A stretch of DNA of 64,000 nucleotides from Octopus vulgaris (GCA_951406725.2 OX597831.1:7812001-7876000); one strand, 5' to 3'; numbered from the stretch's first letter, positions 1 to 60,646 are shown. Notes: generated by a model from the letters alone, not told the origin. Numbers and translations: made by a program.

Positions 1-58
1 TTTTTTGTTAATTTTTTTTAATTGTTTGTTAGACCGTATTATTTAAAAATTTTGTTAG

Positions 59-138
59 ACGACTTTCTCTAAAGCTTCAAAATACCTCCGGAAAAGTAGA
101 GGTGTCTGGTTTGGTGGATAGCACAAGAAAGAAACTCG
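59..138 (+). CDS. SPEF2: SPEF2 internal exon A (RLSLKLQNTSGKVEVSGLVDSTRKKL), phase 2->1
   Basis: ttgttag| acceptor and G|gtgaat donor. Open frame whose phase fits the next exon. Variable region, so assigned by phase continuity only. Confidence 0.65.
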
Positions 139-152
139 GTGAATTTGCTTCT

Positions 153-760
153 CATCATCATCATCGTTTAACGTCCGCTTTCCATGCTAGCATGGGTTGG
201 ACGATTTTGACTGAGGGCTGGTGAACCAGATGGCTGCACCAGGCCCCAATCTTGATCTGGCAGAATTTCTACAGCTGGATGCTCTTCTTAATGTCAACCA
301 CTCCGAGAGTGTAGTGGGTGCTTTTTATGTGCCACCGGCACGGCGGCCAGTCAGGCGGTACTGGTAATGACCTCGCTCGAATCTTTTTACACGTGTCACC
401 AGCACAGGTGCCAGTAAGGCGACGTTGGTAACAATCATGCTCGAATGGTGCCCTTTTACATGCCACCGGCATGGAAGCCAGTTGGCTGCTCTGGCAACGA
501 TCACGCTCGGATAGTGCTCTTGGCACCCTACAAGCACGGGCTCGAGTGCCAGTAGTACGATGCTGGTAACAATCACACTCGAATGGTGCCCTTTTATATG
601 CCACTGGCACGGAAGCCGGTTAGCTGCTCTGTCAATGATCACACTCGTATGGTGCTCTTTGCACCCCACTAGTACGGATGCCAGTCATCGAATTTGATTT
701 TGATTTTGATTTCGATTTCGATTTCACTTGCCTCAACGGGTCTTCGCAAGCAGAGTTTAG
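153..760 (-). mobile_element. RTE-LINE 3'-UTR-derived repeat with a (GAT)n tail and internal tandem 'gtgccggtggcacgtaaaaagcacc' units (boundaries approximate)
   Basis: Same sequence as the 3' end of the RTE fragment at 36000-36260. Other copies at ~2086-2330(-), 24907-25095(-), 32820-33148(+), 44130-44530(+), 48960-49140(-). Confidence 0.75.
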
Positions 761-1180
761 TGACCCAAGAAGGAAAAGGTATGCATAAGCGGGCTGGTTA
801 CGCTCCTGGTGACCGAGACTTTTGGAAATATGTTGTGCTTGAGAAGACCCGGCAAGCCAAATGAGAGCATTGCTTCTAGCAGTGTGAAAATATTTCATCT
901 TGTGTATATCATTTTTATTTGAATTGTGAATTACCTAGACTATATATATCTAGATTATACACAATGTTTCAATGAAAATATTCTCTCCTTACTGCCAGCA
1001 TGTTCAACAAGAAAACAAGTAAAAATGTATTTAAGGTAGCAGGATCACTGAACCTCAGTTAATGATAATTTTTTCTTTGCTGTGTTTTTGTTGTTATCAA
1101 TTGTAATGACTTGATCTTATGACCTATGACTTGATCTTATGACCTCAAAATTCTCAAGAGTTGAATGGCATTTTTTTTAG

Positions 1181-1305
1181 AAATTACATTACCTCCACCA
1201 ATTGAAATTCCTAAAAAGGTAAAAGAAGTCACCTCAAGTTCTAAGATAGAATTATTGGCAAGTACGTTAAAACTTGATGATGCTGCAATACTAAGGAACA
1301 TATAT
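1181..1305 (+). CDS. SPEF2: SPEF2 exon B (EITLPPPIEIPKKVKEV...AAILRNIY), phase 1->0
   Basis: ttttttttag| acceptor, |gtaagt donor, 125 nt open frame, phase-compatible on both sides. Confidence 0.8.
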
Positions 1306-1716
1306 GTAAGTTGTCTAATTTTTTGATTATCCTTTTGAAGATTTTCTACATTTAATATTTACTTTAAAGAGGGCGGCGAGCTGGCAGAATTGTTAGCATG
1401 CCAGGCAAAATACTTAGCACTATTTCATTGTTTCAAATCATTTGATTTGGCTGTGTGTGACTTAAAGCTTTGAATCCTGAATGGCCGAGGTTTCTGTAAG
1501 AAGTCTGCAAAACTTAAAGTTGTGTGGAGCCAAATCAGACTGGCTTAAATAACACACACACACACACGCACACGCATGATGGGCTTCTGCTAAATTTCCC
1601 TCAAATGTGTTGGGTAACCTGAAACTACAGAAGACATACTCATGATGGGAATAAAATATTTAATGATGTATTTGTCCATTTTCGTGGATTATGTTGACTT
1701 CTCTCTTCTGTTGCAG

Positions 1717-1820
1717 GTGAATACACAAGCTAGCCTTGGTTCCAAAGTGATCATGCATTTTGAGAAGGGACAACCTATACCTGAAATTGTTTTAATAGAG
1801 ATTATTACAGAGGCCATCAG
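1717..1820 (+). CDS. SPEF2: SPEF2 exon C (VNTQASLGSKVIMHFEKGQPIPEIVLIEIITEAIR), adenylate-kinase-like region, phase 0->2
   Basis: ctcttctgttgcag| acceptor and AG|gtagat donor. Resembles vertebrate SPEF2 'RAQLGAK...KGKSIPDVLLVDIIVNAI' as I recall it. Confidence 0.92.
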
Positions 1821-3358
1821 GTAGATATCTTTGGATAAACTCTCATAACTTTGACATAACTTTGATAGTGTGTTGACTCAGAGCATTTTATAATTTTGGT
1901 GTTTTAGAAATGCAACCACATCTTGTTTTGAAACAAAATAAAAGGAACATGTATAGTTTTCCCAAAGACACCACCAAGAGTTTAAGAATAGCAACATGAG
2001 CAAAGGAGACGCAGATGAAAGGAATCTGGCTGCTAAAAGAGTTTTGGAATGGTGGAAATGCTTAAGACAAAGCCAAAGCAAAAGGTCATCATCATCATCA
2101 TAACCATCATCGATTAACGTTTGTCTTCCATGCTGGCATGGGTGGGATGGTTTGACAAGAGCCGGCCAGGCAAAAGCCTGCACCAGACTTCTGTGACTTT
2201 TGGCAGGACTTTCACAGTTGGATGCCCTTCCTAACACCAACCACTCAGCAGAGTGGACTTAGTGCTTTTTATGTGGCACAAGCACGGGGAAGGTCAGTTT
2301 TGGCAAGGTTTTTACGGCCAGATGCCCGAGAAAGGAAAAGGAGACATTTGAAAGCCACATCCAGACTTTCTACTTGACTTGAAAGATAAACAAAGCAGAA
2401 TAAAGATGAGATGAATGAATTACTAGAATGGATTGAGAAGCTGTATGAAGAGAAGCTGTGTCAGAGTGAAGGAGGTGATATGTGGGGAGGCTGTTGTGGA
2501 GCGTGAGGTTTTATGGCTTGTTAGTTGTTCCTCAGGGGTTGAAACCAGAAGCTTTATACTGATTATGACTAACTCGCAGACATACCAAGCCCCGTTCTAT
2601 AACATTATTCTTTGAAATAATTGTTATTTTGTCATCACCACATTCAGTGAATAGTGCACATCAAAGACAATATAAAAAAAAGAGAGATACGGGAACTCAA
2701 CTTATGGTATTATCTTGCTTCCAACATCACATGTTCAACCATTGCAAACTATGGGGAAATATTTCTGATACAAGTCTTCTTCCAAGCCTCGTATCTCAGA
2801 GGTTTTGGTGTTTTTCACAGCCAAAAGAGAGCATTGGCCATCAGTGACATTTCCCCACCACATTTCTTGACTCTAGAATTCTCTCTTGTTGGATCCCTGC
2901 CCCCCCCGCCCTTTTTTTTTTAGGGGATTTTACTGTACCACATCATATGTTTCCTTGAGGGTTAAGGGTTGTCCTTAGGGGTTGTCCTCTCGCAAGTCTT
3001 GTAGGCTTTGAACTGTCTTTGATGCTTCTGAAACTTAGCTTTTTTCTAGGTTGAAGTGTTGGCCCTACACAAATCCATTTTTACCTCAGGGAAGAGGTAG
3101 TGTGGCCACTATCCTTTGACCTGTCCAGTATGAGAAGAGTTCCATCAGAAGATTTGTGCTTTGCTGACATAACGTTCAGGGTCAGTGAGACATACAAACC
3201 ACCACACCCCAAAGAGCACTGGACCTTGTGGTGCTTGATTACAACAATCAATGGCTTTTGGTTGTTTGACCCTTGTATTTTTCAGTCTGGTATTTTATAT
3301 TATTGATCTCTAGCAGATAAGTTTTACATTTTTGTTTTTACACAAACAGCCTAACTTG

Positions 3359-3760
3359 ATCACTACGGCGGCGGCGTTTTTCAAGAGAAAAAACGCCGCC
3401 GCCGTGGTGATCTCATTCTCGCCCACAACATCATAAGTGGAAAGTGTAACCTCTCGAAAGAGCTGTTCTTCACTCCTGCTCCAGAGCGTCGGCTGCGGGG
3501 TCATTCCGAAAAGCTCTACCTGCGACGATTTCATCTCAATCGAAGGAGAGGAGCTTTCTCCGTCCGGGTTGCGGATCCGTGGAACAAGCTGCCAGACGAG
3601 ATGGTGAAGATGCCGACGACCGCTTTGTTCAAAGCCTCCCTGGACCTCAAGTGGCCTGAACTCTTTACATGAACACCACCCTGTACTTAACTCCATGTCC
3701 CCCTACATGGCCTTGCTATTTGCTTTTGAGCCAAATTAACTAACTAACTAACTAACTAAC
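3359..3760 (+). mobile_element. 5'-truncated CR1-clade LINE 3' end with a (TAAC)n tail and a short 5' fold-back
   Basis: Encodes KRRRRGDLILAHNII...FSVRVADPWNKLP..., a CR1 ORF2 C-terminal signature. Tail (taac)n. ctaacttg occurs on both flanks. Confidence 0.9.
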
Positions 3761-3787
3761 TTGTACTAATTTACACAACTATACAGA

Positions 3788-3825
<38 letters not shown>

Positions 3826-3858
3826 GTTATGGTATTTAACTATTACTGTTTGTTGTAG

Positions 3859-4133
3859 GTGTGTAAATGAAGAAACTGGTTGGATTTTAGATGGATTTCC
3901 TGTGACTTATTGCCAAACAAGGACTTTAGAGAAAGCATTAACAGGAATTGGTGATGATGATGATGATGAGGAACGTAGAACTAAAGATTTTGAGAAAATG
4001 CAAAATGTCTCTCAGCTGCTTCCCAATCCACATTTAGATGTTCCACCTGCAAAGAAGGTCAGTGGCCTTGATGTGGTGATTCTGCATAACATTTCTGATG
4101 ACCTGTGTCTTCAGAGAGCAGCTGGCCAATATA
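3859..4133 (+). CDS. SPEF2: SPEF2 exon D (CVNEETGWILDGFPVTYCQTRTLEKALTG...LCLQRAAGQY), phase 2->1
   Basis: ttgtag| acceptor, A|gtaagt donor. Contains the adenylate-kinase-family G(W/F)ILDGFP motif and the SPEF2-like LEKALTG. Confidence 0.95.
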
Positions 4134-4539
4134 GTAAGTAAGAAACAAACATTTTCAAGTTGTTTTAGATCAACAATGGTTTTTGCTTGTTTGGTTTTAT
4201 TTGTTTGATCAGGATTACATTCCTGTTGGTGACCATCCAACTGAGACAGACTGAGACCAGAAGACTAATGCACTTTACCTATGGTAGTGATATGCCATAG
4301 ATTTTAGGTGAAGGATGACGGACTTAAGAAAGAAAATCCCTCGGCAAAATCATCTTAGAAAATGTTTACTTGTGAAACAACCTAAAGCTAAAATGACTCT
4401 TCAGCGAGAGAATTACGAAAGCAATTAAAATTCCAGCCTCATTGGCCTGAGTTGAGCCAAGAAGGAAGCTTCTTCCTGGTGATCTAACTTACTAGCAAAA
4501 TCTGCCAAATTTATAATAAAATAGTAATAATGAAATTAT

Positions 4540-4990
4540 TGTGTATCACGCTCAGGTGCACTACAACTCATCAAAGGTGCAGGTAAAGTACATGGAATTA
4601 TGTACAAAAGTCAGGAAAGTGAACAGTGTATGAGTTATGATATACATGTGTATGGAGGTGGGGATATCAGGTGTAGTGTTGGCGAATTTCAGGAAGCATG
4701 GAGGTTTTAAAGGATGCAATGTCTCAGCAACTAACAAGTGATGCATGTAGTTTGTTCCATGCTTCAGCAACTCTGAGTATGAAAAAATGTTACCGAAAGT
4801 CATGAGAGCTGTGCTGTTTTCTGACTTTGTAGGCATGGCCACATGTGTTAGACACATGGAGCTCAAAAAGGTACTCACAGTAGTTGTTGGCATGATGGTG
4901 AATAATCTTGTGGGTGTTTACCAAGTCAGTTGCCAGACGCCAGAGCTTCTGAAATCACGGACTGTTTGCCTTAAGAATGGATTTATCAGA
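4540..4990 (-). mobile_element. Degraded CR1/L2-type LINE 3' fragment (approximate)
   Basis: The minus strand reads HDFR*HFFILRVAEAWNKL...FK, the R..FF..RV...WN.L C-terminal motif. Confidence 0.65.
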
Positions 4991-5000
4991 TAATGTTCAT

Positions 5001-5383
5001 GGAAGCACTCCGTCGGTTACGACGATGAGGGTTCCGGTTGATCCGAATCAACGGAACAGCCTGCTCGTGAAATTAACGTGTAAGTGGCTGAGCACTCCAC
5101 AGACACGTGCACTCTTAACGTAGTTCTCGGGGATATTCAGCGTGACACAGAGTGACAAGCCTGACCCCTTGAAATACAGGTACAACAGAAACAGGAAGTA
5201 AGAGTGAGAGAAAGTTGTGGTGAAAGAGTACAGCAGGGATCACCACCATCCCCTGCCGGAGCCTCGTGGAGCTTTTAGGTGTTTCCGCTCAATAAACACT
5301 CACAACGCCTGGTCTGGGAATCGAAACCGCGATCCTATGACCACGAGTCCGCTGCCCTAACCACTGGGCCATTGCGCCTCCTG
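5001..5383 (-). mobile_element. tRNA-derived SINE with a 13-bp TSD (agataatgttcat at 4988-5000 and 5384-5396)
   Basis: Head GGAGGCGCAATGGCCCAGTGGTTAGGGC...GGTTTCGATTCCC has A- and B-box-like motifs. Exact TSD. Related copies at ~15255-15620(-) and 46804-47103(-). Confidence 0.88.
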
Positions 5384-5618
5384 AGATAATGTTCATATGT
5401 ACACATTGGCTGGAAAAATATGAAGAAAAGCATGCAAGGCCATACCTGGAATACATTTGATGGCAGATTTATTGAGGCTGCACAATGGGAAATAACCTCA
5501 GTGGAGGAGTGATGTAAGGAAATAATTACCTTGGAAGGAAATAATTATCATCTTAATCTTACAACTAATTTGACTTATTATAGATTTTATGACTAATGTT
5601 TATTTTTTTTGTTTACAG

Positions 5619-5754
5619 TATCTGAAAAATCCAAAGAACACTTCCATATGCTTCACAACCCACCTACTTTTGGCCAAGCTACAGGGATTGCAGAGAGAGA
5701 AAAAGTGATACCTCTGATAAGTAAATCCTTTGATGAAGAAAATGCTCAAAACAG
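5619..5754 (+). CDS. SPEF2: SPEF2 exon E (ISEKSKEHFHMLHNPPTFGQATGIAEREKVIPLISKSFDEENAQNR), phase 1->2
   Basis: tttttgtttacag| acceptor, AG|gtacat donor, 136 nt open frame. Not in the ORF track. FH..HNPP resembles an AK LID segment. Confidence 0.9.
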
Positions 5755-6120
5755 GTACATCTATGTCTATGTGTGAGAGAGAGATTAAAAAATCATGTCA
5801 AAAGACTTCATTCTGTGGCACTGGTTCCTTCTGCCAGCCAGCACAACGGTGCATTATGTAATAAAATCTGCAAATCTTTGGCAGGGCTCAAGAGTCGTAC
5901 AAAGGCCTCGCATTGCATAATCAATGATTCATTTCAGTGATTCTTTCTAGCAATGGCTTTGCTCGTATATAAGAAAGCAGATACTGTATATCTTTATTTA
6001 TGGATTTTTTTATACTACCTCAGGTCTCATGCTATCACAGTTTGCAATTTTTAAGTGTCCCACTTGAGAAATGGAGGTAATCTGGCTTCATTTTGGATTT
6101 CGTTCTGTGAAATACATATA

Positions 6121-6921
6121 GTTAGTTAGTTAGTTAGTTAATTTGGCTCAAAAGCAAATAGCAAGGCCATGTAGGAGGACATGGAGTTAAGTACAGGGTG
6201 GTGTTCATGTAAAGAGTTCAGGCCACTTGAGGTCCAGGGAGGCTTTGAACAAAGTGGTTGTCGGCATCTTCACCATCTCGTCTGGCAGCTTGTTCCACGG
6301 ATCCGCAACCCGGACGGAGAAAGCTCCTCTCCTTCGATTGAGATGAAATCGTCGCAGGTAGAGCTTTTCGGAATGACCCCGCAGCCGACGCTCCGGAGCA
6401 GGAGTGAAGAACAGCTCTTTCGAGAGGTTACACTTCCCGCTTATGATGTTGTGGGCGAGAATGAGATCACCACGGCGGCGGCGTTTTCAAGAGAATAAAG
6501 GTCGAGTGTCCTCAGCCTTTCTTCGTAGGACAAATTTTTGAGACCATGAACCATGCGGGTAGCCAGCCTCTGGACTCTTTCGAGGTGCTGTATGTCTTTG
6601 AAGAGATAAGGAGAAGAGGCTTGAATCCCATACTCCAATATGGGTCTCACCAGCGTGACATAGAGTGGCAGGAATATGGCTGCTGTGAGCATTCCGAATG
6701 ACCGTCGAATCAAAAACAGAATTCCGCGCGCTTTGTTGGCAGCATGGAAGCACTGGGCCGAAGGCGAAAAGGAGGAATCCACCAAGATACCCAGGTCCTT
6801 TACCTGATCGGTCCTCTCCAGCAGCAGACGACCCGGCTCGAAATCAAGTTGAGTTGCAGGAGTAGAGCCGACAGGCAGATGACAGCACTTTGACACGTTC
6901 AGACACAGGTCCCAATCGTTG
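6121..6921 (-). mobile_element. 5'-truncated CR1-clade LINE (RT C-terminus plus 3' UTR and (TAAC)n tail) with a 1-bp frameshift
   Basis: ORF 6441..6926(-) reads LNVSKC...KDLGILVD...LYVTLVRPILEYG...LERVQRLATR...YEERL..LDLYSLE. It continues to RRRRGDL after one A is lost (4 A's here versus 5 in the other copy). Confidence 0.93.
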
Positions 6922-8424
6922 TACATACACCCATGTATGCATGGGCCTCAAAAAAAAAAAAACAAAAAAAAAACATGAAAAATATCCTCTTATTATGACC
7001 AATATAGAAACTGTTACATGGTTGCTAGGCCTGCTAGAAATAGTTACCAAATTTATCTTAAGTCACACCCTAGCATGTTATTTAATGTAAGTGTAAAAAG
7101 TATACAACTGTACCTGAAGTATAAAGATACTGTAGGTTAGTTTATGCTGTAGTGTTGCTGTAGTACACGACTGAATACTGTAAAGGTGTTTCTCCATCAA
7201 TCTGCCAACTCTGGAGATCCTTCTCTTGATGTTAAAATAATATTTTTGACTCCAGCAATAATCATTCTTAAAACACAAAATTGTTAATTCAATTTCACGG
7301 GAGAACAATTCTCTTGTAATCTCTCAAAGAAAACAAAACATTCTGTCTTCTTTTACTGAAAAGAGGGTAGTTCTGCAGAAACAGGAATGAATAATATGGC
7401 TTTTTGCTTTGTGGTGTATTTTGGTTGCAGTAACTTGAGAAGTTTTTCTGAGAGATCAATCAACATTTCCTTATTAACTGAGAGTCTCAGAGGGAGACAG
7501 AGAGAGAGAGAGAGAAAGCTGTATCGATTTAGATGTGTAATGCAAATGCATACTGGGAGGAGAGTGAGATGTGATGGAAATAAGCATGAAATTGTTTTGA
7601 TTGGATTTTAAAAAGGTTTGCTTTCAGTCTTGAGATGATACAAAATTAACAGACATTAAACGATATTTGCACTGCAGCCATGTGTGACACAACATTGGTG
7701 GCAGTTCCATGACAATGTCAAATTAAATCTTACCAAAGACTTCATTTTTTTCTCTGTTCACATAGCTTGCATGGGAGGAACACAGTCGATGTATTATCAT
7801 AAATCATGTCGAAGCCAGGGAGATAATTCATGTGATCTTTGCCAGGGGTTAAGGTTTAAATTCGATAAAATTAGTTAGAGAAACAAAAATTCTCTAAGAT
7901 GCTGTAGAAGCTCCTGCCTGATAGTTGGATAATTCAGCTGAGAATTTCCAACTGTTTCAAAATCGTCAGCCTTGGCAGTGCCATTGTTTGAATGTCCACT
8001 TTTCCATGCTTGCATAGGTCGGACAGAATTTGTTGAGCCAGGTTTTCTACAGCTGGATGCCCTTCCTGTTAACAACCTTCACTTGTTTCCAAGTGAAGTA
8101 ATATTTCCCCCATGGCCAGACATGTTTTCATGGAAGACAGAAAAGGAACAACACTGCTTGTATGACAGGGGAACTCAATTACAATCATCACATCATATCA
8201 GTGCAATGAGACAGCAAAACTCCAACATACACACATGCACTCGCTCACACACATGTATACATGATGGGCTTCTTTCAGTTTCCATTTGCAAAATCCACTC
8301 TTAAGACATTGGCTGGCCTAGGGCTATGATAGAAGACTTTTGTTCAAGGTGCTCTACAGTAGGAGTGAACCCTGAACCATGTGGTTGGGCAACAAACTTC
8401 TTGCCCCTCAACCACATCTAAACC

Positions 8425-8510
<86 letters not shown>

Positions 8511-9444
8511 TATATATAAAGTTTGTTGACCATAACTTAGCGGTTCGGCAAAAGTGACCGATAGAATAAGTACTGGGCTTACAAAGAATAAGTCCCGGGG
8601 TTGATTTGCTCGACTAAAGGCGGTGCTCCAGCACGGCCGCAGTCAAATGACTGAAACAAGTAAAAGATAAAAAAGATAAAAAATAATCATTTGGAGCTTG
8701 ATTGTAGTATGATGAGTGAAACCAATATACGCGCATGCCGTATATATAAAAATACGTGTGTGCGTTTGTGTGTCCGTGTGTCCGTGTGCGTCCATCCGTG
8801 TCCATTCATGCAGAGACTGAATTATATATTTTTTTTAGATTTCCATCATCTGATATTATATTTGGATAGGTTTTAGCATTAATGTTTAGCAATTAGGATT
8901 CTGTGATAAAGACAAACAGAGTATGAAGACGGATTTGGAGTAGAACGAAACAAACAGTGAAGTATTGGCTTCCGAATCGACTCTGTTCATACCTCACTGG
9001 TCTGTATATGAGACGAGTTTATTCGCAGATTAAACAATAACAGACGTGTAAGTAAGAAATAATTGTCCTTCAGTTATTGTGTAATATCCGAGTTAAGTGA
9101 CAGAAGCAAAAATGTGCTCAATGAAATCTCTTCTTTCTCTGCAATATATTTTCTAATCCAAATACAACTCACCCCACCCCTTAGTTTGACCTTTTGTCAG
9201 CAAGGTGGCTCACTCTACTGAGCTGTTGAAACATCACTCTGCCTCCACTACCACCACCACATCCACTCCTCTTCCTCCTCCTCCACCACCACCACTCCTC
9301 TTCCTCCTCCTCCACTACCAATCTTCCCCTTTCTCATCCCCCTCCCTCTTCCCCCTCTCTTCCTCCTCCCTGCCTCCTATTCCTCCTCTTCCTGCTATTC
9401 TTCCTCCTTTAAAACAAATGTTAGAAATTCCTGATGAGAGATTA

Positions 9445-9661
9445 TTCTTTTCTGCTCTAGGCACAAGGCCCAAAATTTTTGGGGAGGAGGCTAGCCAATT
9501 AGACTGATCCCCAGTATGCAACAGGTACTTAATTTATCGACCCCGAAAGGATGAAAGGCAAAGTCGACCTCGGCAGAATTTGAACTCAGAACATAACGGC
9601 AGATGAAATACCACTAAGCATTTCGCCCAACATGCCAACGTTTCTGCCAGCTTGCCGCCTT
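9445..9661 (-). mobile_element. tRNA-derived SINE with a Nin/Deu-like central domain (representative copy)
   Basis: The minus strand contains GGTCGACTTTGCCTTTCATCCTTTCGGGGTCGATAAATTAAGTACC, resembling the Nin/Deu domain. Copies at ~9905-10110, 17590-17790, 17940-18160, 20585-20808, 28025-28250, 52425-52635, 56644-56877. Confidence 0.8.
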
Positions 9662-10148
9662 AAAATATTTATTTCTTTATTGCCCCCTTTGTTTTAAATT
9701 TTGGCACAAGGCTAGAAGGGAGTGGGGGCATAGTTTCTCACTTATTGTGGTTATATTATTGTCCCTGAAACGATGAAAAACGAAATTGACCTCAGCCAAA
9801 TTTGAACTCAGAATATAACGAGTCAAAAATAACACCAAAAAGCATTCTCTCCAATATTCTCAGAATCCTCTGAGAGTTCCACTAAATTTAGAAATTTCTG
9901 AGATTGGTTTCAAATTTCGGTGCAAGGCCAGCAATTTTGGGAGAGGGAGGAAACTGATTACATCGTCCCCCAGTATTTAACAGGTACTTAATTTCTGAAG
10001 GGCAAAGTCGACCCTGTTGGCATTTGAACTTAGAACTTTTAAAATCAGAAGAAATGCTGCTAAGCATTATTTTGTCTGGCACGGTAAAGGTTCCGCCATC
10101 TCGCTGCCTTAAAAGGTCTTTCTTTTTTCTTTTTCTTGCACACAACAG

Positions 10149-10290
10149 ATTGATGATCTTTTCAAACTATTGGCCCAAAATGGAGAAATGGTTCTCTTCA
10201 CTTGGCAACTTACACGTAGTTGATGCATCTCAAGACAGAGATGTTGTCTATGAGGATATTAAATCGATAATTGATGAATTCCTGCAACGA
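10149..10290 (+). CDS. SPEF2: SPEF2 exon F (LMIFSNYWPKMEKWFSSLGNLHVVDASQDRDVVYEDIKSIIDEFLQR), phase 2->0
   Basis: Pyrimidine tract plus acag| acceptor, |gtaagt donor. The WP..E.WF motif matches SPEF2 as recalled. Confidence 0.93.
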
Positions 10291-11607
10291 GTAAGTCAAT
10301 TTTTAATTAAACATTGAAATAAATCAAAAACTAAAATTCTATAAATAACATAAAATTAAATTAAGACTTGCTTTTGATTCATTTAAAAAAAAATTAAACT
10401 GAAATGCCTCATTTACTAAATCTATTTATTTTATCGTTATATTTCGAATAGTTTATGAAGAATTTAGTATTTGAGGTTTTTAATGGTGGAATATAGAGTT
10501 GGAATTTGATGTTTTAGCTAGAATTTTTGTCTCTTTTTCATGATTGATATTGGAATATTTTAACTGACCACCTTGCAGAACGGGACTCATTCAAGAATGG
10601 ACCAGTGTGACCATATGACAGCAGAAGAGAAATAAAGGATAAGAAACGGTAGATGACATGGAAAAGTTTAAGGAAATTGTTATTGTTGCTATTGTCGTTG
10701 TTGCTGCTGTTGATGATGATAATTGTGGTGGTGGTGGTGGTGGTGGTGGTGGTGTTGCTACCACTGATAAAAATAATGGCTGCAGCAGCAAGGCTAAGCT
10801 CAGTGACTAGGTGAGGGGGGGGTACATTCGGTTGGCATAGGGGGCAGAAGAAAATTCTTCATCCGAAACAGTTTTTGAATTTGGGAGGAAATATGATTTC
10901 GAAGCTAATCTGATGTCTACAGCCTGTAAGTTGAATAGTTTCATGGAGCAAACTGAGGTGGAACTTGGAATTGACTGTTTTTTAATTAGAGAAAATGTAA
11001 GTCAAAGGAGCAGAGATGCAGCCTCTTGTAATATACAGATCTTTGTTCGTAATTTGCTGTGGTTTATAGAAGTGAGGTTAGGGGTAGAGTGCAGGGATGG
11101 TGAAGGGTAGGGATGATGTAATGTTACTTACCTAAGCTCTGTGCTCCTAATGGAGCATCAACCATTGACAACTGTTCTTGACTCTGGGATGTCTTCTCTG
11201 TGTTTCTCCAGTTGGTTCCTTGCTTTTTCAGCTCTGCCTCTGTATCCCCTCTCCATCTATTTTTAGGGCATCATCTCTTCTGCCTCCCTTGTGGGTTTAT
11301 GTTTCCCTGAGGGAAGGCCTTCCTTTCCCAGGTCTTGTTGCTTTTCAATTGTCATCAACGCTTTTGTAAGTAGGTGTACTGGCCCTATGCAAACCCGTTT
11401 TTAATTATGGGAAGAGGTGGCCCATGATAGTGTGGCTCCTATCCTTTGATCTGTCTGGTATGAGAGGCCCAACTAGCTCTGGTAGCATAGCTCCCTGTGT
11501 CATTGAAGCACACTGGTCACCACATCTCAAGGACTGAGTCATGTCTTGGAGACATTCTATAAAGGAAGCATTAAATGAAGAGAAAAATAGTGAGAAAGAT
11601 GAGAGTA

Positions 11608-12761
<1,154 letters not shown>

Positions 12762-12837
12762 TATTAATACCAAATAGAATTACACCTGTTTCATTGAACT
12801 GAATAAAATATTTTTTCTAATTCATATTATCTGAGGG

Positions 12838-12875
<38 letters not shown>

Positions 12876-12901
12876 TTTCCTTTTATAATTTCATTCCACA
12901 G

Positions 12902-12973
12902 AAAAAAGAAGAAATGTTCACAGCTATGGCTGCTGATGAGAATAATGTTGAAGAACAGCCCCAAATCCCTGCT
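12902..12973 (+). CDS. SPEF2: SPEF2 exon G (KKEEMFTAMAADENNVEEQPQIPA), phase 0->0
   Basis: ttccacag| acceptor, |gtgagt donor, 72 nt symmetric open exon. Confidence 0.82.
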
Positions 12974-13297
12974 GTGAGTATATTTTCTTAGTATCAACTA
13001 AACTCATAAATAGTTATTCATAATCCTTTGGAGACAAAGTCTACTGATACATCTATGGTAAAGAAGAACCATTTTGTACAAAATACAGAAAGAATACAGA
13101 TGTTATTAAAATTCTTCAACTAAATATCTAAATGTCTGAGAATCACCCTTCTCAAGTTTTTACTTCATGTTTGGGGCCTTGGAGACCGAATATAAAAGTT
13201 ATTGGTGTACTTTACTTGGAATGTTAAGAAAATTATATTTTAAAGATAAAAATTGAGAAAACAATCTAGAAAAATCTTTTACATCCTTTTAGTAATC

Positions 13298-60007: not shown

Positions 60008-60646
60008 GACACTTGCCCTACATGCCATGCAGTGGGACTGAACCTGTGACACTTGCCCTACATGCCATGCAGTGGGACTGAACCTGTGACACTTGCCCTA
60101 CATGCCATGCAGTGGGACTGAACCTGTGACACTTGCCCTACATGCCATGCAGTGGGACTGAACCTGTGACACTTGCCCTACATGCCATGCAGTGGGACTG
60201 AACCTGTGACACTTGCCCTACATGCCATGCAGTGGGACTGAACCTGTGACACTTGCCCTACATGCCATGCAGTGGGACTGAACCTGTGACACTTGCCCTA
60301 CATGCCATGCAGTGGGACTGAACCTGTGACACTTGCCCTGCATGCCATGCAGTGGGACTGAACCTGTGACACTTGCCCTACATGCCATGCAGTGGGACTG
60401 AACCTGTGACACTTGCCCTACATGCCATGCAGTGGGACTGAACCTGTGACACTTGCCCTACATGCCATGCAGTGGGACTGAACCTGTGACACTTGCCCTA
60501 CATGCCATGCAGTGGGACTGAACCTGTGACACTTGCCCTGCATGCCATGCAGTGGGACTGAACCTGTGACACTTGCCCTACATGCCATGCAGTGGGACTG
60601 AACCTGTGACACTTGCCCTACATGCCATGCAGTGGGATTGAACCTG
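60008..60646. repeat. Minisatellite: 16 x 40-bp unit gacacttgccctacatgccatgcagtgggactgaacctgt, embedded in a minus-strand SINE
   Basis: Tandem units without spacers. The flanks (59935-60007 and 60647-60690) continue the SINE sequence. Confidence 0.97.

Follow-up and report, generated by a model that had tools for sequence, protein, structure and literature searches.

Two separate LINE insertions form a tail-to-tail inverted pair around two SPEF2 exons in Octopus vulgaris

An intronic retroelement pair with an effect on splicing is known from TBXT, in which a new Alu together with an older Alu in reverse orientation is reported to cause exon skipping and tail loss (PMC10901737). Inverted Alu pairs are also reported to be enriched around skippable exons (PMC13019027). 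Circular RNAs (circRNAs) are described as tracking young, species-specific transposable elements (TEs), and the same source reads most of them as splicing by-products (PMC8516420). Across 18 octopus tissues circRNA levels are given as low: 296 passed filters, 200 of them confined to one tissue, and the authors tie this scarcity to the melting of intronic stems by ADAR (PMC9699675). For metazoans in general, and for octopus among them, young repeats are reported to be the chief targets of editing (PMC9989829), and repeat-directed editing is reported to be widespread over squid tissues (PMC9068888). O. vulgaris is credited with 47 recently active LINE and 900 SINE families, and with 13 recently active CR1 families comprising 787 near-full insertions (PMC13282606). 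In pigs, sperm that are immotile and short-tailed have been traced to an L1 insertion in intron 30 of SPEF2 (cited in PMC8532936).

The locus described here is a stretch of 64,000 nt of the O. vulgaris genome (GCA_951406725.2 OX597831.1:7812001-7876000), hereafter the window, and coordinates are counted from its first letter (Table 1). Among the literature matches listed for octopus circRNA and octopus SPEF2, no title or abstract opening concerns this locus. Sequence comparison identifies the gene around the two LINE copies as SPEF2, in agreement with the preliminary description. Exon D matches the public protein named Octopus vulgaris SPEF2 (P0001) at 100%, and this protein has CH_2, SPEF2_D5 and SPEF2_C domains above cut-off. 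The ADK domain is above cut-off in P0002 and P0003; in the exon D region the ADK match has an E of 0.004, below cut-off. In the O. sinensis model the ADK match spans residues 664-736, a segment encoded by exons B-C and by the first part of D, GWILDGFP included. The public O. vulgaris model P0001 lacks exons B and C (window 1180-1820), while P0002 and P0004 have both. P0001 is likely wrong at these exons, since an RNA contig joins C to D.

Table 1. Coordinates of the LINE copies, their target-site duplications and the neighbouring SPEF2 exons in the window
Feature	Coordinates	Strand	Remarks
SPEF2 exon C	1717..1820	+	104 nt, ends in phase 2; AG/GT ends; matches P0002, P0003, P0004; C-D joint in X13 RNA contig
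Left target-site duplication, copy 1	3351..3358	+	8 bp; same 8-mer at 3756-3763; X4 and X5 contig matches end at 3358
Left LINE, 5' inverted piece	3359..3388	-	30 nt; minus-strand BLAST match; local hairpin with 3389-3412
Left LINE copy (left arm, likely younger)	3389..3760	+	last ~370 nt: ORF2 end, 3' UTR, (TAAC)n tail; present in X1
Left target-site duplication, copy 2	3756..3763	+	8 bp; overlaps tail
SPEF2 exon D	3859..4133	+	275 nt; AG/GT ends; RNA contigs; GWILDGFP motif of adenylate-kinase-like region
SPEF2 exon E	5619..5754	+	136 nt; AG/GT ends; D-E joint in X12, X13, X19
Right target-site duplication (probable)	6113-6118 and 6922-6927		6 bp; flanks right copy
Right LINE copy, likely older	6119..6920	-	~800 nt, 5'-truncated; 6119-6487 = right arm
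SPEF2 exon F	10149..10290	+	would be acceptor of a D+E skip

Recomputation of the exon structure gave the same values as before: D and E together measure 275 + 136 = 411 nt and are in phase 2 at both entry and exit. As had been proposed, a direct join of C to F would keep the frame with the loss of both exons, GWILDGFP included, whereas a skip of D or of E alone breaks it. Intron C-D measures 2,038 nt and has canonical splice sites. Both exons are kept in all five protein models, which come from four species.

No inverted pair in the window is longer than the one between 3390-3758 (+) and 6119-6487 (-). The two arms align over 369 nt with 6 mismatches and 0 gaps (98.4%) and are spaced 2,360 nt apart. 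They lie tail-to-tail: the (TAAC)n tail of the left copy stops at 3760, which leaves 98 nt to the exon D acceptor, and the right tail begins at 6119-6121, ~365 nt downstream of the exon E donor. These measurements bear out the earlier estimates by eye of ~370 bp with ~6 substitutions, placed ~100 nt before D and ~370 nt after E. All six mismatches are transitions, and in the sense pre-mRNA they would give 3 G-U pairs and 3 A-C oppositions (3441, 3483, 6176). The arm duplex has a predicted energy of -769 kcal/mol and outcompetes the hairpin that the left end can form by itself. Window 1-13000 has no further inverted pair above 60 nt, and the window as a whole no competing pair of the same LINE family. 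The arms likely pair, according to the prediction, into a 369-bp stem in unspliced RNA. Since the arms are long, 98% matched, close to the splice sites and free of same-family competitors in the window, the modelled layout offers nearly ideal conditions for back-splicing or loop-out skipping, which counts against dismissing such products as trace by-products.

Several other elements were seen in the window. A very high-copy short SINE-like element occupies 5000-5381 in intron D-E, inside the loop of the predicted stem. At 3738-3787 the (TAAC)n tail supplies CTAAC words that resemble a branch point, 100-120 nt ahead of the exon D acceptor. Use of the AG at 3786-3787 as a cryptic acceptor would put the following sequence out of frame, and no such joint is among the RNA joints listed. 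A near-perfect tandem array with a 40-nt unit (~16 copies) is found at 60008-60646.

The anatomy of the arms marks them as two separate insertions: their lengths differ (370 versus 800 nt), each has its own target-site duplication, and the left copy is nearer to copies on other chromosomes than to its neighbour. Over 351 nt two copies located on other chromosomes each differ from the left copy at 1 site, whereas the right copy differs from it at 6, the 29 loci compared with it having been selected for likeness to the left copy. The claim of two independent young LINE insertions with the potential to form a long stem thus stands on separate junctions, separate lengths and closer relatives elsewhere. 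Two details go beyond the earlier description, namely that the right copy extends to ~6920 and that the left copy carries an inverted piece at its 5' end.

This inverted piece contributes to a near-perfect predicted hairpin of 26 bp (3359-3412, -46.7 kcal/mol). It is peculiar to the left copy (1/23 junctions examined), where the reverse match is 25 nt long versus 5-10 nt in the rest. It looks like the outcome of twin priming or of fold-back. In human cells 5' inversions are reported as almost exclusive to human L1, with none for ZfL2-1 (PMC4245944). By this comparison a 5' inversion would be uncommon for a LINE of such type, and the one here is a single case.

Both copies belong to a family whose long copies elsewhere in the genome reach ~4 kb. 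On its sequence the family classes as an APE-type non-LTR retrotransposon (LINE): the long copy L034 has a 1032-aa frame with Exo_endo_phos (E 7e-12) followed by RVT_1 (E 4e-32), and no Pfam match to RNase H was found in this frame at E 0.1. The (TAAC)n 3' tail is common to 30/30 loci. A 3' tail of short tandem units in place of poly(A) and the lack of RNase H mark the CR1/L2 group, and the family resembles CR1 in its C-terminal motifs and tail. The CR1 label fits this anatomy and is used here as a putative one. An ORF1 with a PHD, RRM or esterase domain is common in CR1 elements but not universal; the upstream frames of 398 and 369 aa matched 0 Pfam families at E 0.1. Long open ORF2 frames are found at L034:173-3268(-) (1032 aa), L031:233-2851(-) (873 aa) and L036:4080-6740(+) (887 aa), and the family 3' end reaches a summed depth in the thousands in RNA contigs, over many copies. 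Because of these open frames and this deep RNA contig cover, the family is likely still active.

The 5' truncation point is variable. A junction was located within 1.5 kb in 23/31 copies, the right copy included, and 2 of these are internal deletions. The deletions are clean, measure ~520 and ~370 nt (L024:545-1862 and L030:1302-1857, element-oriented) and suggest template jumps during reverse transcription. Five of 30 copies (L001, L015, L018, L021, L027) are 5'-truncated within ~20 nt of each other, beside a GC-rich CGC run. This clustering may mark a preferred site of truncation, or it may stem from where the query begins. L034 also contains ~290-nt tandem repeats in the ORF1 region.

Four contig sets, out of 24 runs listed, were aligned as DNA to window 1650-6170. 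In X1, a 330-nt contig covers 3058-3369 with its last 18 letters unplaced; its length equals the span 3058-3387, and its depth of 60 is like that of the flanks. This contig runs into the left insertion, and X1 is possibly the assembly's own source, hence not independent. In X4 and X5, 346-nt contigs match up to 3358, the last duplication base, followed by 46 unplaced letters. Such contigs read as an empty left site, with the contig running on into a CA repeat. From contig position and length, the left copy appears to be missing in X4 and X5 (2/4 runs). X5 comes from a related organism (B), 2-3% different in the flanks, and its contig at 5951-6140 enters the tail of the right copy by 20 nt. X5 thus appears to have the right copy, as judged from 20 nt that are tail repeat only. 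With the left site apparently empty and the right tail apparently there in X5, the two copies are of different age: the right one is likely older than the split from organism B, and the left one likely younger than it. X4 is labelled organism A, yet 7/7 of its listed differences in 3058-3358 are common to X5; X2 has 2 of them. Haplotypes near the left insertion therefore vary within organism A.

It is extremely unlikely that one arm of the pair is a misassembly or was copied from the other by a local inverted duplication. Such an origin could account for both arms ending at the same tail 2.4 kb apart and for the unplaced letters of the X1 contig past 3369, but it is at odds with the six differences, the unequal lengths, the separate target-site duplications and the nearer relatives of the left copy on other chromosomes. 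The X1 contig, with a length that fits the insertion and a depth like its flanks, also speaks against it (with the caveat that X1 may be the assembly source), as does the support of the X5 contig for the right tail. Origins of both arms in a single event, by inverted duplication or double priming, were rejected on the separate junctions and ages.

The number of copies in the genome determines how surprising such a pair is. Two short family motifs recur without a mismatch at 2,435 and 3,247 places of the 2.80-Gb genome, which gives at least 3,247 copies. The estimates range from 4,300 (union) to 5,600 (capture-recapture), on lists of 86 and 100 places that share 50 in a sample consisting of the first 100.8 Mb of C1. 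If 3,247-5,585 copies of this one family are assumed to be placed uniformly, the genome should by chance hold 5-15 pairs in inverted orientation at distances up to 2.7 kb, with 2.5-7.5 of the tail-to-tail kind. In the C1 sample, 0/135 gaps are below 3 kb (0.55 expected) and 4/135 below 10.5 kb (1.9 expected). The former count implies that pairs this close are few for the family, and fewer still flank exons, which weighs against a reading by chance. The sequence match of the arms is itself not due to chance, but to find two copies so near to each other is no more than chance allows in so large a family.

The frame of a putative circle has a similar explanation. The preliminary description had drawn attention to a stop-free circular ORF across D+E, and the open frame is real: the circle has 0 stops in the coding frame and 18 and 10 in the other two. 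It carries no information, however. Among blocks of 1-4 exons built from the 14 exons modelled in the window, 17/50 have a length that is a multiple of 3, and 17/17 of these give a stop-free circle, since a phase-matched coding block is always open unless its junction codon is a stop. Both striking features, the near inverted copies and the stop-free circle, are thus expected from copy number and exon phase.

These expectations bear directly on a switch of the TBXT kind, in which the newer left copy would pair with the older right one and loop out D+E. Carriers only would then make a sizeable 411-nt circle, a SPEF2 isoform that stays in frame but loses 137 residues from its adenylate-kinase-like region, or both. 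The geometry of the pair and the exon phase suit this scenario, as does the absence of the left copy where the right one appears present. It has a mechanism proven for TBXT (PMC10901737) and fits the enrichment of inverted Alu pairs at skippable exons (PMC13019027) and the link of circRNAs to young TEs (PMC8516420). The switch is nevertheless considered unlikely. The layout is expected by chance, the open frame is automatic, and D and E are present in every protein model compared. Octopus circRNAs are reported as rare, a scarcity linked to ADAR (PMC9699675), and most TE-associated circles are read as splicing by-products (PMC8516420). In a stronger form, a lineage-restricted and perhaps polymorphic left insertion would have just completed the pair and so given rise to a SPEF2 circle or in-frame isoform, with ADAR acting as a brake; this too is improbable.

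Four of ten contig sets guessed to be RNA were aligned, and they confirm the linear exon model. A GT-AG joint at 4133-5619 (D-E) is found in X12, X13 and X19 (3/4 runs), and the joint 1820-3859 (C-D) in X13 (1/4 runs). In three runs the contig continues past exon E off the aligned stretch, which excludes exon F, and not back to D. None of the 13 joints listed goes back, but at an exon depth of 3-8, and in contigs that drop rare forms, this has no bearing on a minor circle or skip. At 3438 all four RNA runs have a C in place of T. Editing was rejected as its cause, C being the usual letter of the family (95 of the first 100 genomic matches). The T was likewise rejected as a subfamily marker; it is weak as such, being a CpG change judged on 29 loci chosen for their likeness to the left copy.

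Splicing can occur co-transcriptionally, and the pair could on that basis be inert: intron C-D would be spliced, or the arms covered by protein, before transcription reaches the right arm 2.4 kb farther on, and no stem would form to affect editing or splicing. In favour of this reading are the RNA contigs, whose listed joints are all linear, and the long upstream intron with its canonical sites. Against it stand the high predicted stability of the duplex and published work in which young repeats of octopus and squid are widely edited, whatever the tissue (PMC9989829, PMC9068888). A wholly inert pair is considered rather unlikely.

The explanation that seems to account best for these data, and that is held to be fairly likely, is a chance intronic stem from two truncated insertions that is edited by ADAR, with linear mRNA as the main product and the circle or skip in trace amounts at most. 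Both copies would have inserted by target-primed reverse transcription, the 800-nt copy first, in intron E-F, and the 370-nt copy later, in intron C-D, at a site with CTAAC in common with its tail. The arms would pair when the right arm emerges, provided that intron C-D is still unspliced; if this intron were removed ahead of right-arm synthesis, there would be no stem, which is a point against an edited stem. ADAR would then edit the stem and weaken it, so that back-splicing and skipping would be rare and the linear mRNA would dominate. Editing of this stem is likely, and the published editing of young repeats makes it a plausible ADAR substrate.

The pair is probably nothing out of the ordinary for a genome rich in repeats that has an active LINE, and it belongs to a well-known kind. 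Because its copies differ in age and one arm is missing in a close relative, the locus would make a clean test of stem-driven back-splicing and skipping under strong ADAR activity. Should testis make a sizeable skip or circle, TBXT would have an invertebrate counterpart, and in a fertility gene. If the left insertion did complete the pair, a TBXT-like event would have been caught at birth, and the relative without the left copy would serve as its natural control.

Compared with known systems, the family resembles the CR1-type LINEs reported in O. vulgaris (PMC13282606) in being young and in having APE and RT domains, two frames and a short-unit 3' tail, although it is not matched to any family named there. 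The pig mutation cited in PMC8532936 is likewise a recent LINE in a SPEF2 intron. In the pig one L1 is involved and its effect on sperm is known, whereas the octopus gene has two short copies, not in the same intron, with no known phenotype or mis-splicing. With the TE-driven circRNAs of PMC8516420 the locus shares a species-restricted young TE pair in introns beside constitutive exons, but here the circle is a candidate only, in an octopus with low reported circRNA levels (PMC9699675). In TBXT (PMC10901737) skipping and phenotype are proven by experiment, while the present pair consists of mollusc LINE 3' ends around two exons and its skip product is a putative one. It shares with the reported TBXT AluY/AluSx pair, and with inverted Alu pairs (PMC13019027), a newer intronic retroelement reversed to an older neighbour, with the flanked coding sequence open to in-frame loss. 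In the manner of the young-repeat dsRNAs reported as edited by ADAR across metazoans (PMC9989829) and in coleoids (PMC9068888), it is a long inverted repeat of low divergence within one pre-mRNA, and its editing is predicted accordingly.
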